Of a stretch of DNA of 64,000 bases, positions 2,595-62,570 are shown one piece after another (positions within the stretch are counted from its first letter, which is position 1; every line of letters begins with the position of its first letter). A program made the position numbers and the translations under genes. The stretch is from Isurus oxyrinchus. Its lineage: Eukaryota. Below the pieces are notes generated by a model, which was given only the letters and a program-made list of their open reading frames with translations, was not told the origin of the DNA and searched no databases. Location: positions 171,864,001 to 171,928,000 of the forward strand of contig JANJGN010000004.1 of NCBI GenBank assembly GCA_026770705.1. The letters are read 5' to 3'.

Positions 2595-4765
2595 AGCAGG
2601 CTATGGAGCCTGACAACCCCTCAACATTAGTACTGAAGACTTGTGCACCCAAACTATTCATGCTCCTCACCAAGCTGTTTCAGTAGACCTGCAACACTGG
2701 CATCTAATGACAACTTGGATAATTGTCCTGTCCACAAAGAGCAAGACAAATCCAATCCAGCCAATCTACTCTAGATCATCAGAAAAGTGATGGTAGATGT
2801 CGTCGACAGTGCAATCAATTGGCTGTTCAGTGATGCGCAGTCTGGGTTCTGCCAGAATCACTCAGCTCCTGACCTCATTGCAGTCTTGGTCCAAACATGG
2901 ATAAAACAGTATAACTCAAGAGGTGAGATGAGAGTGACTGCCCTTGACGTCAAGGCAGGATTTGACTGAGTGTGGCATCAAGGATCCCAGGCAAAACTGG
3001 AATCAATGGGAATCAGGGGGAAAACTCCACTAGTTGGAGTCATACTTAGCACAAAGGGAGATGGTTGTGGTTGTTGGAGGGCAATTATCTCAGCTCCAGG
3101 ACATCTCTGCAGGAATTCCTCTGGGGTAGTGTTCTAGACCTAACCACCTTCACAGAATGCTACAGTGCAGAAGGAGGCCATTTGGCCCATCGTGCCTGCA
3201 CGAGCTCTCCGAATAAGCATTATGGCTTAGTGCCATTCTCCTGTCTTTTCCCTGTACCCCTGCACATTGTCTTTATTCACGTAATCATATAATGCCCTCT
3301 TGAATGTCTCAATTGAACCTGCTTCCACCAGGCAGTGCATTCCAGACTCAAACCACTCAATGTATGAAAAGGTTTTCTCTCATATCACATTTACTTCTTT
3401 TGCAAATCACTTCAAATCTGTGCCCTCTCATTCTCGATCCTTTTACAAGAAGGAACAGTTTCTCCCTATCTACTCTGTCCAGCCCTCTCATGATTTTGAA
3501 CACCTCTATCAAAAGTCCACTTAGCCTTCTCCTCTCCAAGGAGAACAGTCCCAAGCTATCCAATCTATCTTCATAACTGAGTTCCTCATCCCTGGAACCA
3601 TTCTTGTAATCCTCTTCTGCACTATGTCCAAAGCATTTACATCCTTCCTATACACAATGCTCTAGCTGAGGTCTAACTGGTGTCTAATATAAACTCAGCA
3701 TGACCTCCCAGCTCTTGTACTCTATGCCCCTATTAATAAAGGCCAGGATACTGTATGCTATTTTAACTGCTCTCTCCACTGGTCTTGCCATCTTCAATGA
3801 TCTATGCATATAGACACCGCATGTCTCTCTTTAGCTGCTTAATCAATGACTGTCCCTCCATCATAAGGTCAGAAGTCACAATGCTTGCTGAAGATTGTGT
3901 AGTGTTCAATACCATTTGTGATTCTTGAGAGACTGAAGCAGTCAATGTCCATATGCAGCAAGACCTGGACAACATTGAGGCTTGGTCTGATAAGTGGCAA
4001 GTAGCGTTCATGCCACACAAATACTAGGCAATGACGATCTCCAACAAGAGAATCTAACCATTTTTCCCTGACACTCATTGACATTCCCATCGCTGAATCC
4101 CTCACCTTCAACATTCTGAGGGGTACCATTGATCAGAAACTGAAATGGACCAGCTATCTAAAGAGTCTAGGAATCCTGTGGTGAGTAATTCACCTCCTGA
4201 GTACCCAAAGCTTGTCCAACCATTTACAAGGCATCATTCAATAGTGGGATAGAATACTCTCCACTTGCCTGGTTGAGTGCAGCTCCAAAAGCACTACAGA
4301 AGCTCAAGACCATCCAAGACAAAGCAGCCACTTGATCCACACTCCATCCACCACCTTAAACATTCACTTCCTCCATCATCGATGTAGAGTGGCAGCCGTG
4401 TGAGCACATCCAAGATGCCATTGCAGCAACTCACCAAGGCTCCTTCAACAGCACCTTGCAAACCCACAACCTCTATCACTTAGGAGGACAAGAGCAGCAA
4501 ATGCATGGAAACACCACCACCTGCAAGCTCCCCTACAAGCCACATATCAATCGTGACTCGGGGCTATATCGCTGTTCCTTCACAGTCGCTGTGTCAAAAT
4601 CCTGGAACACCCTTCCTAACAGCACTGTGGGTGTACCTACACCACATGGAACTGCAGTGGTTCAAGAAGACAATTTGTCACCATCTTTTCAAGGGCAATT
4701 AGGAATGGGTAACAAATGCTGCCTTTGCCAGCAACCCTCATATCCCATGTAAAATTAAGAAAAAA
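2595..4765 (+). mobile_element. LINE family B (CR1-group APE/RT LINE), RT to 3' end, interrupted by a CR1
   Basis: Motifs HSAPDLIAVLV and VTALDVKAGFD; degenerate FADD region near 3880; 3' tail AAGGGCAATTAGG...CATATCCCATG followed by an A-rich end. Confidence 0.85.
3151..3830 (-). mobile_element. CR1 3' fragment nested in the family B LINE
   Basis: ORF 3357..3563 (LGLFSLERRRL...LIEVFKIMRGLDRVD) is the CR1 ORF2 C-terminus. The host LINE resumes in register at about 3831. Confidence 0.85.
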
Positions 4766-5483: not shown

Positions 5484-5981
5484 ATGGATCAACTTGGGAT
5501 CATTTTAAATTCAAAATTCAGTTTTGTGTCCTTCCCTCCTAATGGAAACTGATGTCAGAAATATGCATATAACCAACATCCTGCTTAAGACAGTGTATAA
5601 ATACCTTAAAGAAAATTGCATCACTGCACATGGCATCATTTATCTGAAAATAATTACATTCATTGCTGTCTCTGTGTCTGGGAGGATTTACATTGTTTTC
5701 AGAAGCTAAGCTCCTCTTATATTTCCCACCTTGATATGTGACTACAGTTCTCACAGACCTTTCATGCCACATTGTCACGTCGTCCCTTATTGTTAATCCA
5801 CATTGTTTCAGCGAGAAAATTAGGTTGTAAATTCACTGACACTGCACAGCCAGTTGGGCAGCTGTGCTGGCTGCAGTCCGGGGTCACAAACAGGGTTACG
5901 TATCCAAGACCCACACTGCCTTTCAGCACAGCATTAGTTTGTGTCAATAAATAGTTGCGTTGTGCTACCTGTACCCAGTGA

Positions 5982-6313
5982 GGCAGTGGCACAGCGGTAT
6001 TGTCACTAGATAATGCTCTGGGGTTCGAATCCCGCCACGGCAGATGGTGAAATTTGAATCCAATAAAAATTCTGTAATTAAAAGTCTGATGACGACCATG
6101 AAACTATTGTTGATTGTCATTAATAATCCATCCGGTCCACTAGTGTCCTTTAGGGAAGGAAATCTGCTGTCCTTACCCAGTCTGGCCTACATGTGACTCC
6201 AGATCCACAGCAATGTGCTTGACTCTTAAATGCCCTCTGGACAAGGGCGCTTAGGGTAGGGTAATAAATGCTGGTCTAGCCAGTGACAGCCACATCCCAT
6301 GAACGAATAAAAA
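5982..6313 (+). mobile_element. tRNA-derived SINE with family B LINE tail
   Basis: A box TGGCACAGCGG, B box GGTTCGAATCC, conserved body, and tail CACATCCCATGAACGAATAAAA shared with LINE family B. Confidence 0.85.
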
Positions 6314-6782
6314 ATATATAAAGCTGGTATGAAGTATTCTTCATTGTTGTCACTGAAAAAGGAATTTTTGACAAACTAAAACACTGCACTACACCTGTCC
6401 TGTTCCTGATACTACACACAGCACAAGGTTTTCTCCAGTAAATAAATTGCTGCACCAGAAATAGCAGACAGGCTCTGCTTATTCTATGTATAGTGTTTGG
6501 CATAATCTTTGTATTTTCACTGCAACGGTTTTTACAAATATCATATATCATGTTCCTGATCACGTTCCAAACCATTACGATGTAGTCCTAATTGGAAAAC
6601 AGAAACTCAACCTGAAAAACTGACGCATCAAATGCTCTTTGAAATGCCATGTTTGTTTTGAGATCTGTATTGAATCATTGGTGAAAACAAAATCTATCTG
6701 ATTCTGCTCAGCAGCATTCCTCCAGTCCTGGTCTAATTAAGTGTTTCTGCTTACATTTAAAAACACACAATACACATAACGA

Positions 6783-7700
6783 TAAAAGCCAAATACTGCG
6801 GATGCTGGAAATCTGAAATGAAACCAGAAACTGCTGGAAAAACTCAGCGGGTCTGGCAACATCTGTGAAGAGAGAAAAAGAGTTAATGGGAAGAACTTTG
6901 CCCTTGGCGGGGGGTCGGGCGGAGGCAATCGGGAAGCCAATCGCCACCTGCGATCCGGTCCGGAAGGCAATTTCGTGCTGGTGGGCCAATTAAGGCCCTG
7001 TGCCGGCAGGGAGAGGAGTGTGAGCCAAGCAAGGGCGCTACATAATCCTCCTGAGGCAGAGAGCTGCCTCAGGGAGATGAACTGATTTTAAAACAAATTA
7101 AAGATTTTATAAATGTTATGAAACATGTACCCTCTGTCACATGAGCAGGGACATGTTACTAATGAAAGAATAAAGTTTTTATTTGCTTTTGGAAACTTCA
7201 TCCCCCACGTGGAGGTTGGATAGGCAGCAAAAAATTTCTTTCAATTAACTTTTTAATGGCCTTAATAGGCCTTTTTTAATTGTCGGTGGGTGCGCTGCCA
7301 ACTTCGGTGTGCACCCGCCAACCGAAATATCGCGGTTATCCTGCCGGTGGATGAGGTTTCATGTTTTTTCAGGAGCCCGCTGTGGGTCCTGGCCTGCCTG
7401 CCAGCCTTAAGGTTGGACGGCAGGTCTTTAATTATCTTAATTACCCTGTGAATGGCCTCAATTGGCCACTGACAGGTCGGTGGGTGGACAGGTGATTTCG
7501 CTGTCCCCCCGCCTTCCTAAAGATTTAAATGGACCGGGATGACATCGGGGGGGTCCTCCCGTTGTCATCCCATGTCATTTTCCTGTTGGCGAGTGGAGCC
7601 CACCCTCAAATCACTGATGAGAAAATTCAGGCCTCTGTTTCTTGCTTCATCAATGCTGTCAGTCCATCTGAATATTTCCAGCATTTTCTTTTTTTTTGAA
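6783..7700. mobile_element. Penelope-like palindromic mini-element split by a MITE
   Basis: Left arm 6783-6887 (ATACTGCGGATGCTGGAAATCTG...) and inverted right arm 7634-7700. Confidence 0.65.
6888..7633. mobile_element. PIF/Harbinger-like MITE
   Basis: Ends GGGAAGAACTTT / AAAATTCAGGCC; body shared with the other GC-rich MITEs; no TSD evident. Confidence 0.7.
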
Positions 7701-8350: not shown

Positions 8351-8550
8351 AAAGTAAAATCAAAATACTGCAGATGCTGGAAATCTGAAATAAAAACAGA
8401 AAATTCTGGAAAAGCTCAACAGTTCTGGCAGCATCGTTAACGTTCTGGCAAAGTTAACGTTTTGAGTCTGCATGACTCTTCAGAGCTGAGTCATATGGAC
8501 TCGAAACATTAACTCTGTTTCTCTCTCCACAGATGCTGTCAGACCTGCTG
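8351..8550. mobile_element. Penelope-like palindromic mini-element with TSD
   Basis: Inverted arms; direct repeat AGATTGGAAAGA at 8337-8348 and 8551-8562. Confidence 0.75.
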
Positions 8551-8589
8551 AGATTGGAAAGAATCTTGTATGTAATTGAGACCATGAGA

Positions 8590-10785: not shown

Positions 10786-11280
10786 CAATAGTGTATCATT
10801 AATTTACTAGACTAGAGATCCAGATATTGGCACGAATACTCCAGAGAAAGGGAGTATGAAGATAAAAGCAAAATACTGTGGATGCTGGAAATCTGAAATA
10901 AAAACAGAAAATACTGGAAATCTCAGCAGGTCTGACAGCATCTGTGGAGAGAGAAACAGAGTTCACATTTCGAGTTTGTATGATTCATCTTCAGAGCTCT
11001 CTCCACAGATGCTGTCAGGCCTGCTGAGCTTTTCCAGCATTTTCTGTTTTTATAACAGGAGTACAAATGTTGTTTTGAGGATTTGAATTCAGTTTGTTTT
11101 TAGAGATCCAGAAATAAATGGCTATTGGCCATGAAGCTGTCAGATTATTGTCAAAACCCAACTGGTTCAATAATGTTCTTCAGGAAAGTAAACCTGTCGT
11201 CCACACCAGTCGAGCCTATGTGCGAGTCCCACACTGATGCTTAATTGCCTAGCAAGTCACTCAGTTGTATTAAAACCACT
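10786..11280 (+). mobile_element. tRNA head plus SINE body, ending in the long-form continuation; interrupted by a palindrome
   Basis: ACTAGACTAG..ATCCAGA head; body CTGGTTCA..AATGT..TT.AGG.AAG; ends CACTCAGTTGTATTAAAACC. Confidence 0.65.
10862..11051. mobile_element. Penelope-like palindromic mini-element
   Basis: Inverted arms; degenerate flanking repeat GGGAGTATGAA / AGGAGTACAAA; minus-strand CTGAAGA...GAAA motif. Confidence 0.75.
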
Positions 11281-11718
11281 TCAAGGAATTATGGACTGTA
11301 GTGGCTGAAGAAGTTCTATCTGCCAGTGGTTTCACAGCTTGATAATGAACAGAAAAAATATGGACTTTCACTGCAGAATAGCAATAAGCAAGCCACTCCT
11401 GGCTTTGATTTTTTAATTCAAATTGATCCGGAATTGTGTCCAACTACAGATCAAAAGTATATCTGAAGCCAATAGAATAAAACTTCTCTTGGCTCTAAGC
11501 CTCTGACCAGTTCAAATTGGTGCACTGTTTTAATCATATCCTCCTTCTTGCTGCAGCTCCAGGTATTTTCACCCTCTTTCTATGCTCCATGCTGTTCCTC
11601 ATTGGACATCCCTTGACATTACTGCCCTTATTCTCAACAAATGGGAATTTATGGCACATGCCAACATGATTCTGACTGAATCATCAGGTTTGGGTACACA
11701 CTTAGGGACACATTTTCT

Positions 11719-15651: not shown

Positions 15652-18600
15652 ATATATGGTGGATTAGTGGTATTGTCACTTGACTAGTAATCCAGAGACC
15701 CAGGGCAATGAAGTGGGGTACCTGGGTTTAATCCCGCCACGCAAGATGGTGGAATTAAAAGTCTAATAATAACTGTGAAATGATTGTCGTAAAAACCCAC
15801 ATGGGTTCACTAATGCCTCTTCAGGGAACAAAAACTGCTGTCCTTACCTGGTCTGGTCTACATGTGACTCCAGACCCACAGCAATGTGATTAATTCTGAA
15901 ATGGAAGCCATTCAGTTGCATCAAATTGCAACAAAAAATTGGATGAGGAATGAAACTGGATGGACCACCCAGCATTGACCTCGGCACTGGAAACGACAGT
16001 GGCAACGACAATGGCAACCTCAGCTCTGAAGACCCTGCTAAGTCCGCCTTACTAACATCTGGGGGCTTGTCTCAAAATTGGGAGAGCTGTCTCACAGACT
16101 ACTCAAGCAACAGCCTGACATAGTCTTACTCACAGAATCTTGCCTTACAGATAATGTCCCCGACTCCACCATCACCATCCCTGGGTATGTCCTGTCCCAC
16201 TGGCATGACAGATCCAGCAGAGGTGGCAACACAGTGGTATACATTCAGGAGGGAGTTGCCCTGGGAGTCTCCTGCTGATTACCACATACCACCCACCCAC
16301 AACCACCAGCCCCCCACCGCCGCCAACCCCAAAGCCAATGAATCAGTAATCCTCGATGTTTAACAGCATTTGGAAGAAGCACTGGTGCAGAATGTACTCT
16401 GGGTGGGGACTTCAATGTCCATCACAAAGAGTGGCTCAGTAGCACTGCTACAAACTGAGCTGGCCAAGTCCTAAAGGACATAGCTGCTAGACTGAGTCTA
16501 CAGCAGGTGGTGAGGGAACCAACAAGAGGGAAACACACACTTGACCTCATCCTCACTAACCTGCCTGCCCCAGATGCATCTGTCCATGATAGTATTGGTA
16601 GGAGTGACCAGCACACAGTCATTGTGGAGACAAAGTCTCAGCTTCACATTGAGAATACCCTCCACTATGTTTTGTTACACTACCATTGTGCTAAATTTGA
16701 TAGATTTTGAACAGATTCAGCACCTCAAGACTGGGAAACCATGAAGTGCTGCAGCAGAATTGTACTCAACTGCAAACTGTAAACCTCATGGCCCAGCATA
16801 TCCCCCACTCTACCATTACCATCAAGCCAGGGGATCAACCCTGGTTCAATGAAGAGTGCAGGAGGGTTTGCCATGAGCAGCACCAGGCATATCTAAAAGT
16901 GAGGTCTTAACCTGGTGAAGCTACAACACAGGACTACCTGCGTGCCAAACAGCACAAGCAACAAGTGATAGACAGACCTAAGTGATCCCAGAACCAACGG
17001 ATCAGATCTAAGCTTTGCAGTCCTGCCATATCCAGTCGTGAATGGTGGTGGACAATTAAACAACTCACTCGAGGAGGAGGCTCGACAACTATCCCCATCC
17101 TCAATGATGGAGGAGTCCAGTATATCAGTGCAAAAGATAAACCTGAAGCATTTGCTGTAATCTTCAGCCAGAAGTGTCGAGTGGATGATCTTGGCCTTCT
17201 TCGGTGGTCTCCAGCTTCACAGCCAGTCTTCAGCCAATTCGATTCACTCCATGTGATACCAAGAAACAGTTGAAGGCGCTGGATACTGCGAAGGCTATGG
17301 GACCTGACAATATTCCAGAAGACTTGTGCTCCAGAACTTGCCGTGCCTCTAGCCAAGCTACAACACTGGTATTTACCCAGCAATGTGAAAATTTGCCCAG
17401 GTATGTCCTATACACAAAAAGCAGGGCAAATCCAACACAGCAAATTACCACCCCAACAGTCTAATCTCGAACATTAGTAAAATAATGGAAGGGGTCATCA
17501 ACAGTGCTATCAAGCGACACTCACAATGGCTAATTAATACATTTTAAAACAAGCTTACATAATTTTGAATATAACTCAGCCTTAACAATAACTACTTGAT
17601 TAATTACTAATTCTTCAATTATAACTTAACTGAGGTATACTACTTAGTCAATCAACTTTCTGGCTGCTTATAATTACACAGTTATTGATTAATTCATGTG
17701 AATAATTATAAATACAGAACACAAAAAGCAGGAAAAATTCAACCCGGCCAATTACTGCCCCATCATTGCATTCTCGGTCATCAGCAAAGTAATGGAAATG
17801 TCAGCAACAGTGCTATCAAGTGGCACTTACTCAACAATGACCTGCTCACTGATGCTCAGCTTGGGTTTCAACAGGATCACTCAGCTCCTGACCTCATTAC
17901 AGCCTTGGTTCAAATATGGACAGAGGAGCTGAACTCCAGAGGTGAGGTGAGATTGCTTACCCTTGACATCAAGGCAGAATTCGACCGAGTGTGGCATCAA
18001 AGAGCCCTAGCAAAACAGGAGTCAATGCGAATCAGAGGGAAAATTTTCCGCTGGTTGGAGTCATACCTAACAAAAAGGAAGGTGGTTATGGTTGTTGGAG
18101 ATCAATCATCTCAGTTCCAGGACATAATTGCAGGAGTTCCTCAGGGTAGTGTCCTAGGCTCAACCATCTTCAGCTTTCATCAATGACCTTCCTTCCATCA
18201 TAAGGGGATGTTTGCTGATGACTGCACAATGTTCAGCACCATTCACGACTCCTCAGATAATTGAAGCAGACCATGTCTAAGTGCAGCAAGACCTAGACAA
18301 TATCCAGGCTTGGGCTGACAAGTGGCAAGTAACAATTGTGCCACACAAGTGCCAGGCAATGACCATCTCCAACAAGAGAGAATCTAACCATCGCTCCTTG
18401 AAGTTCAATGGCTTTACCATCACTGAATTCCCTACTATCAACATCCTGGAGGTTACCACTGACCACAAACTGAACTGGACTAGCCACATAAATACTGTGG
18501 CTACAAGAGCAGGTCAGAGACTAGGATTTCTGTGGTGAGTAACTCACCTCCTGACTCCCCAAATCCTGTCCACCATCTACAAGGCACAAGTCAGGAGTGT

Positions 18601-18980
18601 GATGGAATACTCTCCACTTGCCTGCATGCATGCAGCTCCAACAACACTCAAGAAGCTTGACACCATCCAGGACAAATCAGCCTGATTGATTGGCACCCCA
18701 TCCACAAACATTCACTCACTCCACCACCAATGCACAGTGGCAGTAGTGTGCACCATCTACAAGATACATTGCAGGAACTCACCGAAGCTCCTTAGACAGA
18801 GCCTTCCAAACCCATGACCACTACCATGTAGAAGGACAAGGGCAGCAGATACATGGGAACACTACCATCTGGAAGTTCTGTCCTCAGTATCTCACCATCC
18901 TGACATGGAAATGTATCATTGTTCCTTCAATGTTGCTGGGTCAAAACCTGAAACTCCCTCCCTAATAGTGCAGTGGGTGT
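15652..18980 (+). mobile_element. Near full-length family B LINE with tRNA-derived 5' head and decayed APE-RT ORF
   Basis: A box at about 15660, degenerate B box at about 15725 and SINE body, then APE motifs (NIWGL..KLGEL, PDIVLLTES, RGG..VYI, PTRGKHTLDLILTN, SDQ) and RT motifs (LDIKAEFDRVWH, GVPQGSVLG, FADD at about 18211). Many stops and frameshifts; the terminal tail is missing. Confidence 0.85.
17519..17826 (+). repeat. Inverted copy of 30254-30562 (templated insertion)
   Basis: About 200 bp AT-rich unique DNA plus about 108 bp LINE, near-identical to the reverse complement of 30254-30562. Confidence 0.92.
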
Positions 18981-18982
18981 AG

Positions 18983-19103
18983 CCGTTCTTGTAGCCACAG
19001 TATCAATATGGCTGGTCCAGTTCAGTTTCTGATCAATGGTAACCCCCAGGTTGTTGATAGTGGGGATTCAGTGATGGTAATGCCATTGAACGTCAAGGGG
19101 CGA
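18983..19103 (-). mobile_element. Inverted family B LINE fragment
   Basis: Reverse-complement similarity to about 18390-18510. Confidence 0.8.
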
Positions 19104-19124
19104 TATTTTGATCAGATATTATAC

Positions 19125-19415
19125 CAGGGCCTGTCTGCTTTTCAGGTGGCTGTAAAAGACCCTATGGTGCTAGTTTGAAGAAGAGGAGGGCAGTTATTGC
19201 CTGTGTCCTGGCCAATATTTACCCCTCCAAGAATATCACAAAAACAGATGAACTGGTCATTGTCACAGTGCTGCATGTAGGACCTTGCTGTATGAAAATT
19301 GGCCATGTTTCCTACAGTACAAAAGTAGCTACATTTCAAAAGTTCTTTATTGACTGTAAAGAGCTTTGGGACACCTAATGTTGTGAAATGTACTATATCA
19401 ATGCAACTGTTTTTT
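19125..19415 (+). mobile_element. DeuSINE (SacSINE1/AmnSINE1-like) Deu domain and tail
   Basis: CAGGTGG.TGTAAAAGA.CC.ATGG...GAAGAAGAG...TGTCCTGGCCAATATTTA.CCCTC is the Deu-domain motif, recognised from memory. Confidence 0.75.
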
Positions 19416-23865: not shown

Positions 23866-24250
23866 GGAGAGATGCCGGATTGTGATAATGTCACTGGATT
23901 AATAATCCAGAGGCACAGGTGAATACTCTGGGGACAGGGGTTCAAATCCCACCATGGCAGCTTGTGGATCGAATTTAAATTAATATAGAAAGCTAGTATT
24001 TGTAATGGTGAATATGACAACTATCATTGATTGTTGTAAAGACCCAATTGGTTTACTAAGGCCCTTTAGGGAAGGAAATCTTCCATCCTTCTCTGGTCTG
24101 GCCTACATGTGACTCCAAACCCACGGAAATGTGGTTGACTCTTAACTGCCCTCTGAAATGGCCTAACAAGACACTCAGTTCAAGGGCAATTAGGGATGGG
24201 CAACAAATGCTGGCCTTGCCAGTGACTCCCATAAGCCATGATAAACAAAA
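23866..24250 (+). mobile_element. tRNA-derived SINE with family B tail
   Basis: B box GGTTCAAATCC; body; junction CACTCAGTT|CAAGGGCAATTAGGG at 24180/24181. Confidence 0.85.
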
Positions 24251-25014: not shown

Positions 25015-25740
25015 ATTATCCTCATTCCCTTGATGGCTCAATGGGTTCTGAATTAGGCTTAACTTAAATGGTTGTCGAGCAATGAAAATAGCTTCAGTAG
25101 CCATAGATTATGGATGGAGGAAAATAAACTATTCGCACTCTGGATGATTATTCATAAGGAATTTAGCAGAAACATATTCCTAGAATCATTTGATGATGCA
25201 GCACAGAAGGAGACCATTTGGCTCTTCATACCTGTGCTAGCTCTTTCAAAGAATTATTCAAACAATCCCTACCCCTGCTCTTTTCCTATAGTCCAGTAAG
25301 TCTCTACCCTTCAAGTATTAATCCAATTAACTTTTGAATGTGTTATGAACAGGAGGGGGGTTTAATTTAGAACAGCCCTAATTTCTCCACTCACAATCCA
25401 TCCGTAAACAGAAAGGTATTTTTGATTTTTGATTTTCCCCTTTATAAGTGGTGGTGTATTTTCCCAATACTTCAGTTTTGGAGTGATACAATCCTCTATT
25501 AATAACCCCATGGCAAAATTGAGATAGGGTAAAATCAGAGAGTTAGTTTATTTTACACACACCCAAAAATGTAGGAAGTAGGTTTGTGATGTCCCTCACT
25601 TCTGTGTTTATGCAATAAAAGAGGGATAAGTGAAAGAAAGGGGTTCAGGGCAAAGACCACAAGCAAAAAAAAAAATATGGTTCCATATGAGTCCAGAGTC
25701 CAGGATCAAAACGTCCAATGATGTATTCCTTCAGAAGTTT

Positions 25741-27343
25741 AGCATAGAAAGGGAGGAGGTTCTAAGTGGTCCGGCAGGCTTAAAAGTATATAAATCTCCT
25801 GGCCCGGATGAAATGTATCCCAGGCTGTTGAGTAAGGCAAAGGAGGAGATAGCAGGGGCACTGGCAATAATTTTCAATACCTATCTGGCCACAGGAGAGG
25901 TGCCAGAGGACTGGAGGACAGCCAATGTGGTACCATTATTCAAGAAGGGAGGAAGGGATAAACCAGGGAACTACAGGCCAGTCAGTCTAACCTCAGTGGT
26001 GGGGAAACTATTGGAAGCAATTCTGAGGGACACTTGGAGAGGCAGGGACTAATCAAGGACAGTCAGCATGGTTTTGTTAAGGGGAGGTCATGTCTGACCA
26101 ATTTGATTGAATTCTTCGAAGAGGTGACCAGGTGTGTAGATGAGGGCAATGCATTTGACGTAGTCTACTTGGACTTCAGCAAGGCTCTTGATAAGGTCCT
26201 GCATGGGAGACTGATAACGAAGGTAAGAGCCCATGGGATCCAAGGCAATTTGGCAAATTGGATCCAGAATTGGCTGAGTGGCAGGAAGCAGATGGTGATG
26301 ATCGAGGGGTGCTTTTGTAACTGGATGCCTGTGTCCAGTGGGGTTCCACATGGATCGGTGTTGGGTCCCTTACTGTTTGTGGTATATATAAGCAATTTAG
26401 ACCTGAATGTAGGAGGGTTGATCAGTAAGTTCGCGGATGATACGAAAATTGACGGGGTGGTAAAAAGTGAGGAGGAGAGCCTTAGATTACAGGAGGATAT
26501 GGATGGGCTGGTCAAATGGGCTGATCAGTGGCAAATGGAATTTAATCCGGATAAGTGTGAGATGATGCACTTGGGCAGGACAAACAAGGCACGGGAATAT
26601 TCGATGAATGGTAGGACCCTGGAAAGTGCCAAAGATCAGAGGGACCTTGATGTGCATGTCCTGTGGTCTCTTAAGGTAGCGGGACAGGTAGATAAGGTGA
26701 TTAAGAAGGCATATGGGATACTTGCCTTTATTAGCCGAGGCATAGAATATAAGAGCAAGGAGGTTATGCTGGAACAGTATAAAATGCTGGTTAGGCCATA
26801 GCTAGAGTATTGCGTGCAGTCCTGGAAACCGCATTGGAGAGTGCAGAGGAGAGTGCAGAGGAGATTTACCAGGATGTCGCCTGGGCTGGAGAGTTTTAGT
26901 TATGAGGAGAGATTGGATAGACGGGGGTTATTTTCCCTGGAGCAGAGAGTTTGAGGGGGGACATGATTGAGGTGTATAAAATTATGTGGGGCATAGATAG
27001 GGTAGATAGGAAGGAACTTTTCCCTGTGGTGGAGGGATCAATAATCAGGGAGAATAGATTTAAGGTAAGGGGAAGGAGATTTAGAGAGGGTGTGAGGAAG
27101 AATTTTTTTCACTCAGAGGGTGGTGGGAATCTGGAACTCACTGCCTGAAAGGATGGTAGAGGCAGAAACCCTCACAACATTTAAGAAGCATTTGGATGTG
27201 CACTTGCGATGCCATGACATACATGGCTATGGGCCTAGTGCTGGAAAATGGGATTAGAATACTTAAATACTTGTTTGACCAGTGCAGACTCGATGGGCCA
27301 AAGGGCCTTTTTCTGTGCTGTAGACCTCTATGACTCTATGACT
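25741..27343 (+). mobile_element. Young 5'-truncated CR1 LINE (ORF2 RT pseudogene)
   Basis: KSPGPDEMYPR, PEDWRTANVVPLFKKG, NYRPVSLTS, QHGF, YLDFSKA, GVPHGSVLGP, KFADDTK; ends in CTATGACT octamer repeats. Confidence 0.95.
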
Positions 27344-28454: not shown

Positions 28455-30364
28455 TTTATTTGTTCATGGGATGTGGACATTGTTGGCATCTATTTCCCAT
28501 CCCTAATTGCCCTTGAAAACATACAAACATATGAACTAGGAGCAGAGGTAGGCTTATCGGCTCCTCCATCCGACTCCGCCATACATTAAAATCATGGCTG
28601 ATCTGTTTGTGTTTCGAGTTCTACATCCCCACTAACTCCGATAACCTTTGATTCCCTTGCCTAACAAGAATCTATCTAATTCTGCCTTAAAAATATTCAG
28701 TGACCTCACTTCCACTGCCTTCTGAGGCAGGGAGTTCCAAAGTCGCACAACCGTCAGAGAGAAAAAAATCTCCTTATCTCTGTTCTTTTAGGGTGGCCTC
28801 TAATTTTAAAACCGTGCCCCCTAGTTATGTACTCACCCACAAGAGGAAACATCCTTTCCACTTCTACCTTGTCAAGACCACACAGGATCTTACATACTTC
28901 AATCAAGTCGCGCCTCAGTCTCCTAAACTTTGGTGGACACATCCCCAATCTGCCCAATTTACCTTCATAAGACAACCTGCTCATTCCAGGTATCAATCTA
29001 GTAAACCTCCTCTGTAGCGCCTCCTATGCATTTACATCCTTCCTTAATTAAGGAGACCAAAACTACACACAGTGTGCACAGAGGTGATAGTGCACTTCTT
29101 CTTGAACCGCTGCAGTCCATGTGCTGCAGGGACACTGACAGTGCTGTTAGGGAGGGAATTCTCAGATTTTGACCCAGCAACAGTGAAGGAATGGCGATAT
29201 AGTTCCAAGTCAGGATGTTGTGTGACTTGGAGGGGAACTTGCAGGTGGCAGTGTTCCCATGCATCTGATGCCCTTGTCCTAGGTGGTAGAGGTCACAGGT
29301 TTGGCAGGTGCTGTTGAAGGAGTCTTGGTGAGTTGCTCAGTGCATCTTGTAGATGGAACACACTGCTGCCAATATGCATCGGTGGTGGAGATAGTGAATG
29401 TTTAAGATGGTGGGTGAGGTACCAATCAAGCAGGCTACTTTGTCCTGGATGGTGTCAAGTTTCTTGACTGTTGTTGGAGCTGCACTCGTCCAGGCAAGCG
29501 GAGAGTATTCCATCACACTCCTGACCTGTGCCATGTAGGTGGTGGACAGGCTTTGGGGAATCAGGAGGTAGGTTACTCACCACAGAATTCCCTGTTCTTG
29601 TAGCCACAGTATTTATATGGCTAATCCAGTTCAGTTTCTGGTCAATAGGATACCGATAATGGGGGATTCAGTGATGGTAATGCCATTGAATGTCAAGGGC
29701 AGGTGGTTAGATTCTCTCTTGCTGCAGATGGTCATTGCATGGCATTCTTGTGGCATGAATGTTACTTGCCACTTATCAGCCCGGTTGGAATATTGTCCAG
29801 GTCTTTCTGCATTTAAGCACAGACTACTTCATTATCTGAGGAGTCACAAATGGTGCAATCATCAGCAAACATCCCCATTTCTGACCTTATGATGGTGGGG
29901 GAGGTCATTAATGGAACAGCTGAAGATGGCTGGGCCCTGAGGAACTCCTGCAGTGATGTCCTGGAACTGAGATGACTGATCTCCAACAACTACAACCATC
30001 TTCCTTTGTGCTAGGTATGAATCCAATTAGTGGAGGGTTTTCCCTGATTTCCACTGATTCCAGTTTTGCTAGGGCTCCTCGATGCCACACTCAAGTCAAA
30101 TGTGGCCTTGATGTCAAGGGCAGTCACTCTCATCTCACCTCTTGAGTTCAGCTCTTTTGTCCAGGATAGAACAAAGGCTGTAATGAGGTCAGGAGCTGAG
30201 TGGCCCTGCTGGAACCCAAACTGAGTGTCAGTGAGCAGGATATTGCTGAGTAAGTGCCACTTGATAGCACTGTTGCTGACATTTCCATTACTTTGCTGAT
30301 GATCGAGAATGCAATGATGGGGCAGTAATTGGCCGGGTTGAATTTGTCCTGCTTTTTGTGTTCT
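28455..30364 (-). mobile_element. 5'-truncated family B LINE, interrupted near its 3' end by a CR1
   Basis: ORFs 30011..30382 (HSAPDLITA, VTALDIKATFD) and 29337..29534 (QVRSVMEYSPLAW); tail at 28455-28518. Confidence 0.9.
28519..29080 (-). mobile_element. CR1 3' fragment (nested)
   Basis: ORF 28754..28996 (LSYEGKLGRLG..RRLRRDLIEVCKIL) plus 3' UTR. Confidence 0.85.
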
Positions 30365-30599
30365 GTATTTATAATCATTCACTTGAATTAATCAATGATT
30401 GTGTAATTATAAGAAGCCAGAAAGTTGATTGACTAAGTAGTATACCTCAATTTATGTTATAATTGAAGAATTAGTAATTAATCAAGTAGTTATTGTTAAG
30501 GCTGAGTTATATTCAAAATTATGTAAGTTTGTTTTAAAATGTATTAATCAGCCATTGTGAGTTCTGCTTGTTTCTGAGTTTTATATCAGCTGTAAACTT

Positions 30600-38368: not shown

Positions 38369-38457
38369 TTCCACAGATGTTGTCAGACCTGCTGAGTTTT
38401 TCCAGCATTTTCTATTTTGGTTTCAGATTTCCAGCAACTGCAGTAGTTTGCTTTTAT
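38369..38457 (+). mobile_element. Penelope-like single arm
   Basis: TCCACAGATGTTGTCAGACCTGCTGAGTTTTTCCAGCATTTTC. Confidence 0.7.
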
Positions 38458-40572: not shown

Positions 40573-41226
40573 ATAGCTGTTTTTGCCCACATTATCCAGC
40601 TTTCCAAATTTTTCCGAACATTTTATCAGTCTCTGAATAAAATACTGTTTCTCCATGTGGGTTTTAAATTAAATTTTTTACAAGGATTATAACAGCACCA
40701 AATTAAAACACAGTAAAACCACAGTTCACTGTTCCCAAAACTAGATCAATGGTAGCTTTATTCATATTCTTCAATTTGTGTAAAAATAGGATTTACAATC
40801 TGGGTTATAAGGGAAAATTTATTATATAGCTAACCACATCCACAAATTTTAATTACATGCAATTAGCATGACTTATCCTTAGGTTATGTGTAGTGACAAC
40901 ATTGCAACATTCCAGGTTTTCTACAGTATCACTTTGTGAATCAGTGTAAAGGAGTACAGAGCCGAGTTATTAACTAAAGCTCACTGGCAGTCATTTGTAA
41001 TTCTCAATCAATTTAAAGTTATTAATATAAGAGGAATAGGACATGGGACATCTGGTTGTCCAATCAAAGGAATAAGATAATATAAGCTATTAAGAAAAAG
41101 CTAGAGCTGCTAATAACCCCTAAAATATAATAAATCATGCAATCAATTTCCTTTGGGAAAATACATTACCAAGTTATGGAGTGGATTTTTAAACTGTTAC
41201 AGTACTTTCCACTAATAGGATGCTTT

Positions 41227-41615
41227 TTTAAAATTCATTCATGGGATGTGGGTATTGCTGGCTGGGTCAATAATTATTGCCCATCCCAAACTGCCCTTGA
41301 GAAGATGGTGGTGAGCTGCCTTCTTGAAGATACCACAACTTTGGAGCAGTGATAATGGGGTATTTCAATTATCTTAATGTAGATCTTAATGATCTAGTCC
41401 ATGTGGTGTAGGTACACTGACAGTGCTGTTAGAGAGAGAGTTCCAGGATTTTGACCTAGCGACAGTGAAGGAACAACAATAGATTTCAAAGTCAGGATGG
41501 TGAGTGGCTTGGAGGGGAACTTCCAGGTGGTGGTGCTCCCATGTGTCTGCTGCCCTTGTACATCTAGATGGTGGTGGTCATGTGTTTGGAAGGTGCTGTC
41601 TTAGGAGACTTGTTG
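41227..41615 (-). mobile_element. Family B LINE 3' end
   Basis: TTCATTCATGGGATGTGGG tail plus reverse C-terminal region. Confidence 0.8.
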
Positions 41616-42675
41616 AATTCCTGCCATCAATCCAAGAAGACATTCTGCCTACCACACAACTGAGCAATGGCATGTATGAAATACAATGCCAGTGTGATGC
41701 CAAGTACATAGGTTGTATGTCCCAGCAACTGATCAAATCAAACAGCATGTTCCTTCAGTTCTTTGTAGCAGGCAGAATACAGACTGTGCTCAACCAGCCC
41801 ACGCTTGCAAAACCCAAAACAAAATATCTACTGTTAGTTGGGATTCCACGTTTGTGCAGCACTTGTTGAACAATCCTAAATGCACTAAAAGCTACACCAA
41901 AAACCAGTTTAAGATGATCACTCGAGCTTGTAACGTGGCCCATTTTTGCAACATACATTCATACACAAGAATCAATTCTCTATAACGAAAGGAATAGGTT
42001 CAAACCTTGCGCCATTTTTGAATTACCCAGAAACTTAAGGACCCTATAATTCCCGTTGCTTTCTCCATGGCAACACCTTGGCTAATCAGAGTCCACTTGC
42101 CAACCAATCAGCACCCCTTCCTCCTTTAGTATAATTTTTTTTTATTCGTTCATGGGATGTGGGCATCGCTGGCTGGGTCAGCATTTATTGCCCATCTCTA
42201 ATTGCTGTTGAGAACTGAGTGGCTTGCTTGGCCATTCTGGAGGGCATTTTTAAGAGTCAACCAAATTGCTGTGGGTCTGGAGTCACATGGAGGCTAGGCC
42301 AGGTAAGGATGGCAGATTTCCTTCCCTTAAGAACATTAGTAAACCAGATAGGTTTTTCCAAAGTGGTTTCATGGTCATCATTAGACCTTTAATCCCAGAT
42401 TTTCTATTGAATTCAAATTCACCATCTGCTGTGGTGGGGTTCGAACCCAGAGCCTTACCCTGGGTATCTGGAGTAACAGTCCAGTGATAATACCAATACG
42501 CTACTGCACTTGTCCTTCTAGACGGTAGTGGTCGTGGGTTTGGAAGGTGCTGTCTAAGGAGGCTTGCTGAGGCTTGGTAAACTGTTGTGATCGTTTGAAA
42601 TTTGGCATTCTTGTGTTTGTCCTATGAGTGCAAGACAAAAAGCTTTTGCAACATGTCTTTCTTTTCAGTAATATA
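41616..42675 (+). mobile_element. Penelope-like element 3' part: GIY-YIG endonuclease remnant and terminal repeat (interrupted at 42136-42576)
   Basis: LPTTQLSNGMYEIQCQCDAKYIGC.SQ.L..IKQHVPS...QHLLNNPKC...QFKMI fits a PLE GIY-YIG domain; degenerate hammerhead at 42617-42652. Confidence 0.85.
42136..42503 (-). mobile_element. tRNA-derived SINE with family B tail
   Basis: Reverse B box (plus strand GGGGTTCGAACCC), body and tail. Confidence 0.85.
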
Positions 42676-46709: not shown

Positions 46710-47365
46710 ACAGTTGTTCCAGTACAGCTACAACACTGACATCTACCTGGCTATGTGGAAAATTACCCAGGTATGTACCGTACATAAAAAGTAGGACAAA
46801 TCCAACACTGCCAGTTACCTCCCCATCAGTCTCCTCTTGATCATCAGTAACATAATGGAAAGGGTCATCAACAGTGCTATCAAGGGGCACTTGCTTAGCA
46901 ATAAGCTGCTCACCAACACCTAGTTTGGGTTCCACCAGGGTCCCTCAGCTCCTGACCTCATTATATCCTTAGTTCAAAAATGGACAGAAGAGCTGAACTC
47001 CTGAGGTGAGGTGACAGTGACTGCTCTTAATATCGAGGCCACATTTGACCAAGTGTGGCATCAAGGAGCCCTAGCAAAACTGGAATCAATGGGAATCGGG
47101 CAAAAACTCTCCACTGGTTGGAGTGATACCTAGCACAAAGGAAGATGGTTGTGTTTTTTGAAGGCCAATCATCTCAGCTCCAGGACATCACTTCAGGAGT
47201 TCGTCAGGGTAGTGTGCTCAGCCCAACCATCTTTGCCTTTCATCAACAACCTTCCCTCCACCATAAGGTCAGTAGTGGAGATGTTCGCTGATGATTGCAC
47301 AATGTTCAGCACCATTAACGACTCCTCGGATACTGAAGCAGTCCATGTCCAAATGCAACAAAACA
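46710..47365 (+). mobile_element. Family B LINE RT fragment
   Basis: FINNLPSTIRS..EMFADDCTMF. Confidence 0.85.
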
Positions 47366-47882
47366 TGATCTGATTTTAACCTCACATACCTGCCTACCTT
47401 ATAACCTTTCACCCCCTTGCTTATCAAGGATCTATCTACTTCTGCCTAAAAGATATTCAAGAACTCTGCATCAACCACCTTTTGAAGAAGAGCATTCCAA
47501 AGTGTCACAACCCTCTAAGTGAAATTTCTTTTCCTCATCTCTGTCCTAAATGTGTGACCCCTAATTTTGAAAAAGTGACCGAGTTCTAGATTCTCACACA
47601 AGATGAAACATCCTTTTCACACTCACCCTGTCAAATCCCCTCAGGAACTTACATGTTTCAATCAAATTGCATCTTGCTGTTCTAAACCCCAGCAGATACG
47701 AGTCTAGCCTGTGCAGTCTTTCCTCAGCAGACAACCCGGCCATTCATGGTATCAATCTAGTAAACCTTCTCTGACCTACTTCTAATACATTTACATATTT
47801 CCTTAAATATGGAGGCCAATACTGTACACAATAATTCTGATGCGGTATCACCAATGCCCTGTATAACTGAAGCATAACCTCC
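47365..47882 (-). mobile_element. CR1 3' fragment
   Basis: KEVMLQLYRALVIPH..YCVQYWPP..VGQRRFTRLIP. Confidence 0.8.
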
Positions 47883-49455: not shown

Positions 49456-49842
49456 TAAGTGTTTAAATCTGCACTTTGGTTATTAGAGGGCTCGGCAGAG
49501 CAGATATTGGGTGCCTCTGCTATTCAATGGTTCTCTTCTGTACAGATGGATTTTGGAGAACTAATGCCATCAGAAAAATTCCTATATTCATGGAGCTCGA
49601 GAGCTGTGTGGATTTCCAATTTCGATTTAGAGTGGCAGGAGGAAAAAAAACGGCAAATATTATGAGTGTTCATGGAGACTATCAGTCTCCATGTAGGTGT
49701 TGTTTTCCTGCGAACATAGTTCTAATGCCATGAGACAAATTGATTGAAGAACAATTGTAGGAAATAACTGACTTTATTATTTATGTGGAAACATTACAAT
49801 TAATTATTTGGTCTTGTAAATCTCTGGACTTTGTTGTACTAT

Positions 49843-49980
49843 CTGTTCTGTTGAAGGGTCATGAGGACTCGAAACGTCAACTTTGTTCTTCTCTGCTGAT
49901 GCTGCCAGACCTACTGAGCTTTTCCAGGTATTTCTGTTTTTGTTTTGGATTTCAAGCAACCGCAGTTTTTTGTTTTTATT
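49843..49980 (+). mobile_element. Penelope-like arm with minimal hammerhead motif
   Basis: GTT-CTGTTGA-A-GGGTC-ATGAG-GACTC-GAAA-CGTC-AAC; stems I and II pair. Confidence 0.7.
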
Positions 49981-53599: not shown

Positions 53600-53760
53600 G
53601 ATCAAAGATGGAGAATGCTGGAGCCTCTGTGGAAAGAGAAAGAGAATTATCATTTTGGGTCAATGACCCTTTTTCACTCTCCACAGATGTTCCCTGACCT
53701 GCTGAGCATATCCAGCATTTTCTGCTTTGATTTCAGATTTCCAGCATCTGTGTTATTTTA
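53600..53760. mobile_element. Older Penelope-like palindrome
   Basis: Degenerate inverted arms of the same family. Confidence 0.6.
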
Positions 53761-54603: not shown

Positions 54604-56304
54604 ATTGTGCAAGTTTACACTACATTCAATGTTGAAATAACCTCATTTGACAGGCCTCACAGAATACTGTAATTATTAAAGGTTAATGATACAGTCTCAA
54701 AGTAAATTGGTCATACATTTCAAACTCCTCCTTAGCAACTGTTTTAAATTCAGGAAATTAGAGTTGCAATTTCACGCAGTTACATTTTCTTTTTTATGGC
54801 TTTGAATAATACATATCTTTAAAATGTTCATAGTCCAGTGGCTCTAGCTATACCATCAACTGAATTATGATCCAAACAGTGCAGCTCAAATTTTAGCTTC
54901 AATTGCCATTATCATGTTCCAGTATATTATAAACTTTCAGTCAATGTTTTATATTTTTCAATCCACAAAAGGCTACAAATAGATGGTCACCTGAGGATCA
55001 CCTGATGTCTCTTGAAGGTTGAAACACTCCCCTGTCTCAAGAGGGAACAATAGGGATTTTCCAGGCTGATGTTGACTCAATGCCTTTTCCCGAAACTAAT
55101 TCAAAAGGGTCATTTCAAATTGTTTGGATCATTCAGCTACAAAGACCCTTGGTGTCTCAAACTCTCAAGGTGTGAAAGTCATCAAACAGAATGTAAAATT
55201 GACCTGGATACCCACCTTATTTGGAAAAGGACTTTGGACTTGCAACAGGTCACATGGTAGGATAGCCATGTTTGTTAATTGCTTTTAAAACAGCAAGAAG
55301 CTGTTCTGGGAGAGAAATCCATTAGACAACCACCGAACCAGCTGCATGTCAACTAAACAGCCAAGGTAATAAACAACCATGAAAGTGGGAGAAGGTCTCT
55401 CTCTGACCTGTTCCAATTTGAAGATCACGTGAGAACCAACTTCCTGGAAAGCTGACTACAAGACTCTTTGCAGGTTGCTGAAAATCCTCTGCTTTACAAG
55501 ACCTTCACTTCAGCCAAAGCATCAACTCATCTAAGAAACTACAGGCCGGCTGCAAAAGAGAGACTAAGACAATCAGGAATTATAATTTCATTGCTTTTTT
55601 TCCCTCAACTGCATCTAAATCTGTGTGTGAGTGATAGTATAGGTGAGTCAAGTGAGTGAAACATCATGTCCTAAACCTCCGTGCAACTGTGTGATAACAA
55701 ATAACCTTCCTTATTTTTAAATTCACAAAAAGCTTCCTATTAATTCGGTGAAAGCCCATCTGGCAAAGGAAGAATATGGAGTCAGTCTGTCTCAATGTAG
55801 GTTTATTCACAAAACTGAGTATAACATATGTGCAGCCCACTTTTCCCTTCCACAAAGTTCCCCCCTCCACAGGTGGAAATTCGTTCTTATATATGTGCCC
55901 TAACCTTTTTCCAAGTAAGAGCAGTATCGACTGCTCTTATTACAACTAGAGCATGCATTCTATTTTCACATAATTTGCAACAATAACACTTGCGGCTGGA
56001 ATGATTTAGATTGGGACAATGACTCCGAAGATAAGAAAACACACGATCCTCACACACAAAACACAATGACCATGGGCAGTAAGAAAAGACCTACCATCTG
56101 TCCGTGACACCATCTTTAGAGGAATATTTCAATTTGCTATCCAAACCACCAGTTCAATACTAGAAGAATAAAAGATTGGCTAGATTAATCCCAATGCTCT
56201 AGCAAGATAAAATAAGAGGTAATGAGGTGAGCAATGGGCATAATAGAGGGTTATCATTCTGTGAGCATTAATTTGATGTCCTGAGGTTGTGAAAGAGCTA
56301 CAGA

Positions 56305-56650
56305 ATGCACTGCAAAACTGGCCAAGACTTCTTCAGCAGCAACTGCCAAAACCACAACCTCTACCACTTGGAAGAACAAAGGCAACAGGTGCTTGGGAAC
56401 ACCACCATCTGAAAATTCCCTTCCAAGTCACACATTATCCTGACATGGAAATATATCACCGTTCCTACATTGTCACTTGGTCAAAATCCTGAACTCCTTT
56501 CCTAACAGCACTGTGGGAGTATCTATACAACACAGGGACTGCAGCAGTACAAAAGATGGCTCACCACCACCTTCTCAAGGGCAATTAGGGGTGGGCAATA
56601 AATGCTGGCCTTTCCACTGATGCTCACATCTCATGAAGAAGTAAAAACAA
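56305..56650 (+). mobile_element. Family B LINE 3' end
   Basis: Matches 4415-4765; contains CACCTTCTCAAGGGCAATTAGGG. Confidence 0.8.
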
Positions 56651-57047
56651 AGCAAATTTTGTTTTTCTTTTAATTCTGTCGATAATTATGTACCAGTTTG
56701 GCATATTTAGCAATTGACCCTTAAGATTGGAACTTTCCTCAGATTTATATAAGTAATCAACCAACGACAGTTATCCCAGGTTATGGTTTCCCACTTTCAG
56801 CTTGAGATAATCAGGAAAACTTACTTCTTGAGGAATAGAAACTACCCATAATAACATAAGAAATAGCAGCAGGGCCCATATGGCCCATCAAAACTGTTCC
56901 GCCGTTCAATAAGATAAGAGTACATCCTCAACTCCACTTTACCACCCAATTCCCATATTCTTTGATTTCCTTAACCCCCTTATGCCTATAAATGAAACAG
57001 TTTATTGCATACTGGCAGTAACAAGGTACTTAGGGTTCAAACTCAAA

Positions 57048-59687: not shown

Positions 59688-60025
59688 TTTTTTTTTTACA
59701 TTTGTTCATGGGATGCAGGTGAGGCCAGCATTTATTGCCCTCATTCAGAGGGCATTTAAGAGTCAACCACATTGCTGTGGGTCTAGAGTCACTGTGGGCC
59801 TGGAGACACATGTAGACCAGACCAGGTAAGGGCAGCAGATCCCCTTCCCTGAAGGACATTAGTGAACCAGATGAGTTTTTATGACAATTGGCAATGGTTT
59901 TGTATCAGACTTATAATTCCAGATTTTTTTTGGATTCAAATTTCACGATCTGCTGTGGTGGGATTCGAACCTGAGCATTACTCTACTATACTAGTCCAGT
60001 GACAATACCACTATGCCACCACCTC
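59688..60025 (-). mobile_element. tRNA-derived SINE with family B tail
   Basis: Reverse A box (plus strand CCACTATGCCA), B box (GGATTCGAACC), body and tail. Confidence 0.85.
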
Positions 60026-60086
60026 CATTTTTAATTCAATAATGGCTGATCCACACTTAAATTCCATTTATCTGCCTTTTTTCCAC

Positions 60087-61371: not shown

Positions 61372-61760
61372 TACTTTCATAGGATGTGGGCAGGGCCATG
61401 TCCCCATCCTTAATTGCCCATGAACTGAATGGCTTGCTGGGCCATTTCAGAGGGCAGTCGACCAGATTGCTGTAAGACTGGAGTCACATGTAGACCAGAC
61501 AGGGTAAGGATGGCAGATTTCCTTCCCTATAGGGCATTAATGAACTAGATGTGCTTTTACAACAGCTGATGATAGTTTTCATGGGCACCATTACCGAGAC
61601 TAACTTAAAGTTCCAGATTTATGAATTGAATTTAAATTCCACCAGCTGCCGTGGTGGGAATTGGATCTATGTCCCCAGAGCATTAGGCTGGGGATATAAT
61701 TACTAGGGCTATTGCTGGGCTGGATTACTTGCCCAGTGATATTTCGACTAAGCCACTATC
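61372..61760 (-). mobile_element. tRNA-derived SINE with family B tail
   Basis: Same body and tail as 42136-42503. Confidence 0.8.
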
Positions 61761-62570
61761 TCCCCTCCCCTTTCCACCACCTTTTTGCATATGCACTGAC
61801 CAGAGGGTTGGCATGACTTTCTGGAATACCTGGAGATGGGAGGATAAGTCCTTGTTTCTCCTAGGCACCCTACGACCACTCCCCTCCACTTACCTCCTCT
61901 CCGTATGCTTCCAGGTAGTCACAGCCTTCAGCTGATTGACCTCTCAATTTTAGGCAGACAATCTCCCGAACTGCACGTTCATTCCCTGGCCCTCCTGCCA
62001 GTGTTATGCCCTGTAATGATGGTGATGAACTGGGAGCCCACACCAGAGAGTATCAACACTAAGCTGCCTGGACTTTGGGTGTGCAAATCCTCAGCCTTCC
62101 TTTTTCCACTGGGAATGTGCCCCATTTACATAATCACTCTTCATAATCCAAACCAATCCCCCTCCGTGCCATCAATCATTCTGGTTGTTCTCTTCTGTAT
62201 TATCTTAACAACTGCATTATCCTTTTTGTACTGTGGAGACCACAATTGGACACAGTTATTATATAACTTTTCTTATCACCTCCTTTCTGACAATTACCAT
62301 GCCTTTATAGCCAAAGCCTTGCATCATTTAAGCACCACTTCCTGATTCATCTCAACTTCCTGAAGATATCCAGAGAGAGAAGCCTTTAAGCTTATTTATT
62401 CATTGTTTTTATGTGTTCTCTTGTGATTCCATCCACGCATTACACTCTGAATGCCACCATTGCCAGAGAACACATTTTATTGATAGATGGTCGATTGTGC
62501 ATTTTTCTTAAAAAATTCCTTTCAACAATAATCTTGGGAGGAGAATTGCAAATAATGTAATGCAATCGTA

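Follow-up and report, generated by a model that had tools for sequence, protein, structure and literature searches.

The element at position 15652 of the window – the whole stretch of 64,000 nucleotides of Isurus oxyrinchus DNA analysed here – is a dead, 3'-truncated copy of Zenon, a LINE of the CR1 group, in its elasmobranch form. It begins with a tRNA-like head and a body shared with the SINEs of the same window, and these are followed, after a linker, by an APE endonuclease and a reverse transcriptase (RT), with no ORF1. We regard it as practically certain that this order – head, body, linker, APE-RT and a short A-tailed 3' end – is the structure of the family across sharks and rays. Taken as a whole, the evidence inclines us to the view that the intact element was an autonomous Zenon LINE of ~3.3 kb, lacking ORF1 and with a tRNA-derived SINE head and body for its 5' end, and that the window copy is a dead one. 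The sequence of the family and its absence of ORF1 were already known; the tRNA head of elasmobranch Zenon has not been remarked on before in the literature searched.

Head, junction and coding part of the 15652 copy

The features of the copy and of its 3' edge are listed below; A and B boxes were scored against consensus patterns.

15652..15744, + strand: tRNA-like head (relaxed ARAGORN call at 15653-15744 and box scores; anticodon arm read as Thr-AGT)
15660-15670, + strand: A box (1 mismatch to the consensus pattern)
15725-15735, + strand: B box, damaged (2 mismatches to the consensus pattern)
15745..15917, + strand: body common to SINE and LINE, up to the point where the two part (alignments)
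15918..16041, + strand: LINE-only linker, with an A-rich part, an ATG at 15950 and, in the APE frame, a stretch rich in Arg/Lys
16042..16775, + strand: ORF2, APE endonuclease domain, interrupted by stops and frameshifts (weak Pfam PF03372; tblastn to P0085 and P0075)
16776..17510, + strand: ORF2 between APE and the RT start, broken (tblastn to P0085; translation)
17511..17840, + strand: patch derived from the inverted copy at 30570-30240 (patch identity 93-98%, downstream 78-90%)
17841..18981, + strand: RT core and C-terminal part of ORF2 (Pfam RVT_1; alignment with five other window copies)
18987..19112, - strand: inverted Zenon fragment where the tail should be (87% to 18382-18508)

The original prediction saw in this element the head and body of the surrounding SINEs, followed past 15917 by a path that leaves the SINE for an APE domain and then an RT, with no room for an ORF1, and the present analysis agrees on each point. 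Positions 15652-15917 align with the five dispersed SINEs of the 64-kb window (330-385 nt) at 71-79% identity, and the A and B boxes can be made out. Beyond the junction at 15917 the endonuclease begins after 124-133 nt, a tblastn match with a full-length relative beginning at 16042 and the first APE motif lying at 16051. Pfam gives a weak match to Exo_endo_phos (PF03372; E 0.003, below the cut-off) and one to RVT_1 at E 1e-12, and no ATG-started ORF upstream of APE is longer than 57 codons. The copy is riddled with stops and frameshifts, and its 3' end, with the shared tail, is lost at ~18981.

The 5' end of the element has the tRNA-like fold and the A and B boxes by which a tRNA-derived SINE head is recognised, with Rfam support that is weak or absent. 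Under relaxed settings (90% of threshold, no introns), ARAGORN made four calls in the 64 kb, all four at heads of the Zenon/SINE family – that is, at four of the six heads in the window – and read the LINE head as tRNA-Thr(AGT) at 15653-15744; as a chance control, 14 of 300 shuffled heads were called at a laxer setting. Default ARAGORN and Rfam found no tRNA in the whole window, and Rfam on the heads left that at 59688 non-significant (13 bits, E 3.4) and gave no tRNA match for the LINE head. The latter has an extra segment at the position of the variable arm, and RNAalifold on four heads kept the anticodon stem, with no covariation or compensatory change.

The patch (~330 nt) comprises ~200 nt of AT-rich non-Zenon DNA and ~120 nt of Zenon, duplicating 113 nt of ORF2, and we read it as templated repair from the 30570 locus. 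The junction of head and LINE is unaffected by it, because the 5' part alone ties together the head, APE and the start of RT. As to TSDs, the 15652 copy is without its 3' end, and the flanks of the SINEs give at best an 8-nt candidate in one of the five.

One structure across sharks and rays

The published elasmobranch Zenons (CarCar_, HypSab_, RhiTyp_, ScyCan_ and SquAca_Zenon; PMC13343379, which, like most of the papers cited below, is drawn on for the excerpts available) have the same head, body, junction, linker, single APE-RT ORF and A tail, at ~3.3 kb. Judged by its sequence, the 15652 copy is a member of this family – a single ORF for APE and RT, no ORF1 and a consensus match being seen in it, and poly(A) in other copies of the window – and is unlike the consensuses in being decayed and truncated. 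The comparison covered the first 400 nt of each consensus, by eye and with one exact 27-nt body motif taken from the window. All seven elasmobranch consensuses (2.9-3.3 kb, from the five species of Carcharodon, Hypanus, Rhincodon, Scyliorhinus and Squalus; Supplementary Table 2 of PMC13343379) open with the tRNA-like A/B-box head, followed by body, junction and linker, and none of the three Zenon consensuses from hagfish (two) and coelacanth (one) does so in its first 400 nt. The motif occurs in the seven elasmobranch rows and, within the first 400 characters of each cell, in no other row. By eye, the boxes can be recognised in shark and ray consensuses alike, and the head and linker of the window copy are co-linear with them.

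Predicted proteins point the same way. The APE start, searched against 1.84 billion representatives, gave 312 matches, of which the best 150 were listed, and 153 proteins were taken in total. At least 22 of these are close relatives, nine of which reach the APE start: four carry a translation of SINE body or junction, a further four start within the linker, and the last is spliced to an exon of the host. An ORF1 is seen in none of the nine. P0003, P0007 and P0152 (the last by eye) read across the junction of body and linker, P0002 has body sequence upstream, and the linker is shared by the published consensuses and by P0003, P0005, P0011, P0062 and P0152. No long protein with the shark-type APE was found; the searches for one gave a single match each, gene-model fusions of 311 and 269 aa.

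The junction is therefore not peculiar to one locus, as it recurs in seven consensuses, and in four predicted proteins from other loci SINE-body sequence runs into that endonuclease. The consensuses, of 2.9-3.3 kb, have this head and lack an ORF1, rather than having some other 5' UTR with an ORF1. The proposal of a SINE-headed protein-coding retrotransposon is borne out by the same structure in all seven. The absence of ORF1 is likewise real, but as a novelty it had to be given up, since all Zenons are without ORF1 and have poly(A) (PMC13343379, in the part available).

As for known families, Zenon is catalogued as sequence, and its head goes unremarked there: the available text of PMC13343379 contains no match for ‘tRNA’ and no mention of Pol III or of a partner SINE, and that of its preprint none for tRNA, promoter or polymerase. 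The same paper reports that elasmobranch Zenons were absent from repeat databases, and a whale shark preprint, in the part available, names CR1-Zenon-like LINEs and nothing more. No description of a tRNA-headed Zenon was found in the literature searched, which took in few subscription papers; Repbase, Dfam or further supplements may hold one, and the SINE may already carry a database name. Three short family motifs had no match in paper texts, and GTDB scans for stray eukaryotic contigs found none. Going by the descriptions in the excerpts available, the cartilaginous-fish SINEs HE1, SacSINE1 and CmiSINE have other partners (PMC5499810, PMC3747384, PMC4824008).

The start of ORF2 calls for separate comment. 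An ATG follows a length-variable A-rich stretch in six of the seven consensuses (by eye) and, at 15950, in the window copy. It is out of frame with APE at 15950 and in the Hypanus consensus, and the shorter linker of SquAca_Zenon-2 seems, by eye, to bring it into frame. In the APE frame itself lies an extension rich in Arg and Lys, which resembles the one in the full-length relative P0085. Two ATGs in frame with APE, at 15901 and 15943, were discarded as starts, the consensuses being without them in that frame (by eye). We propose that ORF2 may start through a -1 shift or at a non-AUG codon.

Transcription of the full-length element

In the mechanism that we propose, an ancestral Zenon would have gained the tRNA-SINE head and body through a template switch in reverse transcription. 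The A and B boxes would serve as an internal promoter, most likely for Pol III, and a single RNA would extend over ORF2, poor in T runs, as far as the A tail. ORF2p would come from a non-standard start, either by a -1 shift out of the short ORF at the linker ATG or from a non-AUG codon. It would bind the 3' stem-loop and the A tail, and copies would be inserted by target-primed reverse transcription. Internal deletion, probably repeated, would have joined the end of the body to the last four codons of ORF2, leaving a SINE of 330-385 nt with both promoter and RT-binding end.

Whether the full-length RNA would indeed be made by Pol III is, to our mind, evenly poised. Pol III RNA has to avoid T4+ runs (PMC9599045, excerpt), and such runs on the sense strand were counted against CR1, base-content, codon-aware and Markov nulls. 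Copies of the family have 7 in 9,140 nt (21.9 expected from base content) versus 28 in 5,337 nt of CR1 fragments, with p 2e-7 for copies that are not independent of one another and p 0.018 in a non-redundant comparison. The deficit concerns T runs only, and all five runs that could be checked are private to one copy. A 1,414-nt majority sequence of the 3' part has no T4 run (P 0.03, 0.13 and 0.54 under Markov orders 0, 1 and 2), and none is visible by eye in the 7 x 400 nt of elasmobranch consensuses. The main copy has 3, versus 3.7-4.0 expected from its codons (P 0.42-0.47), and its Phe codons show no avoidance of TTT (9 TTT, 14 TTC; p 0.58); it shares its low Phe content with the two full-length relatives closest to it (5' ends unseen). 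The scarcity of T runs is strong against CR1 and is lost under codon-aware nulls; the data are compatible with Pol III transcription and do not demonstrate it.

In the L1 system, Pol III transcripts retrotranspose without ORF1p (PMC2666806, excerpt), a result that makes the pairing of Pol III with an ORF1-less element plausible and says nothing on elasmobranch Zenon itself. The loss of ORF1 is uninformative here, because all Zenons lack it, tRNA head or not. Pol III RNAs carry no cap, which tells against the proposed mechanism. So does the length of SINEs, described as limited by Pol III processivity (PMC10886601, excerpt).

The best-surviving alternative, which we rate as possible albeit somewhat unlikely, keeps the structure and has ORF2p translated from a Pol II RNA: the head would be a captured 5' UTR acting as, or under, a Pol II promoter, or the RNA would come from host read-through, with Pol III making only the SINE or the template RNA. 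LINEs are described as Pol II units (PMC10886601; bioRxiv 2022.11.04.512097, both in part), among which 5' UTR swapping is common (the same preprint), and this reading also fits the T runs of the main copy, which are about as many as its codons predict. It has more difficulty with the consensuses, whose opening bases are those of the tRNA-like head, just where Pol III would have to start, and with the retention of the boxes in sharks and a ray. The AATAAA motifs in the tail speak for Pol II, yet AAUAAA-dependent polyadenylation is known on Pol III SINE RNA too (PMC9599045, excerpt).

Origin of the short SINE and its meaning

The other members of the family in the window are five SINEs, an old fragment and five headless Zenon copies (head types by eye):

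23866..24245, + strand: SINE, Squalus-type head (junction 24180/24181)
61380..61762, - strand: SINE, Squalus-type head (junction class as at 23866)
42145..42508, - strand: SINE, Carcharodon/Scyliorhinus-type head (junction keeps 2 nt more of the tail)
5980..6308, + strand: SINE, Carcharodon/Scyliorhinus-type head (junction ~25 nt earlier in the body)
59700..60026, - strand: SINE, Carcharodon/Scyliorhinus-type head (early junction, more 3' loss; tRNA-Thr call)
11080..11300, + strand: headless body fragment, old (8-18 nt linker-like, then tail-like; weak evidence)
2624..4765, + strand: 5'-truncated Zenon, tail intact (interrupted at 3153-3827)
56298..56651, + strand: 3' end of a 5'-truncated Zenon, tail and A run present
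41216..41627, - strand: 5'-truncated Zenon 3' end with tail
29097..30570, - strand: 5'-truncated Zenon (to 30361) plus AT-rich flank, likely the patch donor
46726..47367, + strand: internal Zenon RT fragment

A runs terminate the copies at 4765, 56651 and 41216 and the SINEs; the main copy, being truncated, has none. As predicted, the 23866 SINE joins the end of the body to the last ~70 nt of the LINE, the sequence also found at 4690, 56576 and 41300. The SINE consists of the LINE's first ~270-310 nt and last ~70 nt and of nothing else, so that, as in a SIDE (short internally deleted element), the LINE's two ends account for the whole of it. The LINE holds the body exactly to the SINE's boundary between body and tail, with 1-2 bases common at the join, and the SINE tail starts four codons before the ORF2 stop, which lies within it.

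These features suggest that the SINE probably arose from the LINE by internal deletion. Of what had been claimed, the make-up of the SINE from the LINE's two ends holds, and the direction is favoured, albeit unproven. The five SINEs fall into two or three junction classes and two head types, each like a different published LINE head (by eye): two are Squalus-like, and three, together with the LINE head, are Carcharodon/Scyliorhinus-like. Classes and types would fit repeated deletion, as in the lepidopteran Persaeus; the differing junctions could also be secondary deletions within the SINE, or the result of head exchange. As other Zenons are without the head, we infer that its acquisition by the LINE, from a SINE or a tRNA, must have come first; 5' switching is documented in plant RTE LINEs (bioRxiv 2022.11.04.512097, in part).

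The reverse direction, in which a SINE with a Zenon tail pre-existed and the LINE captured its head and body later, appears unlikely to us, although the head must derive from some SINE or tRNA, many independent bivalve SINEs use Zenon tails (PMC11481361, excerpt) and template switching between SINE and LINE RNAs has been proposed (PMC4824008, excerpt). Such a switch must have landed exactly on the boundary of body and tail, and the head types of the SINEs track those of the LINEs. A weak point on the same side is that the 11261 fragment may retain LINE-only linker bases before its tail. That fragment had been taken as an independent copy of the long path, a claim that had to be dropped: only 8-18 nt are linker-like, 6 of the first 10 bases match the linker, the 40-nt local score is at chance level (p 0.71) and a tail-like stretch follows (p 0.017). 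It is possibly another deletion junction, which leaves one full junction of head and LINE in the window.

Derivation by deletion has its closest parallel in lepidopteran Zenon and Persaeus (PMC6740152, excerpt), where short elements combine the 5' end of an ORF1-less Zenon with the end of its ORF, the 3' UTR and poly(A), and where deletion derivatives arose at least four times. Persaeus, however, is described there as having no tRNA, 5S or 7S homology and no Pol III promoter, whereas the shark 5' end is a tRNA head. The bipartite SINEs Bov-tA, AfroSINE and CoeSINE4 (PMC5786205) resemble the present SINE in joining 5' and 3' parts of a LINE to a tRNA head; in these, the head was added to a deleted LINE whose autonomous form lacks it, and the only contributors found were RTE and Vingi. 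A possible precedent for the LINE is RTE-1_DAn with its relatives (PMC5786205), LINEs reported to carry tRNA-like sequence matching many tRNA SINEs. They differ in belonging to the RTE clade, and the sentence on them gives neither the position nor the role of the tRNA-like part; within the literature searched, the name was found in that paper only.

Cassandra, Helenus and Ajax (PMC10886601, excerpt) share with Zenon a small-RNA-derived Pol III promoter in a retrotransposon that is not a SINE, but are LTR elements without coding content, non-autonomous and 0.3-1.3 kb long. MetaSINEs have a head closest to tRNA-Thr, as here (PMC4824008, excerpt), and some use Zenon tails in bivalves (PMC11481361, excerpt); the likeness is one of head and tail use, the available section of PMC4824008 having no shark member.

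It is improbable that the element is a giant non-autonomous SINE, with ORF2 as a passenger, mobilised by another LINE. The lack of a clear in-frame start codon would suit it, as would the rarity of intact ORF2 in Table S3 of PMC13343379 (0/2313, 1/1419 and 3/612, from denominators of 2313, 1419, 612, 396, 294 and 59 that we take as near-full-length copies, the header being without a definition), except that the families listed on the same page also seldom have an intact one. The supplement, in the part available, gives no other Zenon consensuses for those genomes, the elasmobranch ones are >84% identical across the five species, and the APE and RT motifs of the 15652 copy are still alignable with full-length relatives. 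Chance adjacency of a SINE and a 5'-truncated LINE, suggested by the single full junction in the window, or an artefact of the automated extension used for the published consensuses (PMC13343379, excerpt), is already refuted by the same junction in seven consensuses of five species, in the raw window copy and in P0003, P0007 and P0152.

To return to the tRNA-headed LINE, its structure bears on a textbook division, which assigns LINEs to Pol II and defines SINEs as short units of Pol III with a tail borrowed from a LINE; a tRNA-headed coding LINE breaks it. Annotated copies of the affected family cover 0.7-6.8% of the genome in seven sharks and rays (0.018% in Callorhinchus; Table S4, PMC13343379, excerpt), a figure that probably includes the SINE, and repeat annotation there lumps SINE copies together with the 5' ends of LINEs. 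The structure also offers a one-step route to a SINE, by deletion and with no capture of a head. Tentatively, and going by sequence, elasmobranch Zenon might be an autonomous Pol III LINE, whose uncapped 3.3-kb RNA would be translated from a non-standard start and reverse-transcribed, and which would have been kept since the split of sharks and rays, reaching up to ~7% of some genomes and repeatedly shedding SINEs. If that reading is true, Zenon would be an ‘autonomous SINE’. The family offers a natural setting in which to ask whether translation and mobilisation of a long Pol III RNA are possible in the absence of ORF1.

Head structure and the linker ATG

Within the tRNA-like head of the main Zenon copy, an additional segment of ~25 nt (15690-15720) lies with the B box on one side and the anticodon arm on the other, and alignment of the window copies shows that the extent to which it is deleted differs among several SINE copies. 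In the visible 5' part of SquAca_Zenon-2, a published Squalus Zenon consensus (PMC13343379, supplement), a shorter linker between SINE body and APE domain seems, judged by eye, to bring the linker's ATG into frame with APE, which may reflect either a real subfamily or a consensus artefact.

Neighbouring repeats

Repeat features of the window
18987-19112, inverted Zenon fragment directly beside the main copy's truncated 3' end
3153-3827, insertion with a CR1-like piece, interrupting the Zenon copy at 2624-4765
25690-27206, canonical CR1-like RT fragment whose long frame is almost open
6771-6884, 8351-8555, 10859-11053, 38370-38463, 49841-49985, 53047-53295 and 53622-53750, short palindromic, MITE-like repeat family

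The CR1-like sequences of the window – the RT fragment and eight smaller pieces elsewhere – served as the control set. The SINE at 42145-42508 is directly preceded, on the same strand, by a short Zenon ORF2 fragment (site 42501-42570). The sequence at 19120-19400 may resemble a Deu-domain SINE of the SacSINE1 type. An Rfam search of the window returned sub-threshold microRNA matches at 53097-53289, in one of the MITE-like repeats.

A shared patch and host gene models

Two inverted Zenon copies 13 kb apart, ~82% identical elsewhere, align at 93-98% identity over a patch of ~330 nt (17511-17840 versus 30570-30240) that takes in ~200 nt of non-Zenon flank; we read this patch as the trace of a gene conversion or templated repair event.

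In the gene models of four predicted proteins (P0001, P0010, P0015 and P0022), the Zenon APE start is spliced into host proteins. These fusions are probably annotation errors, though they may represent exonisation.
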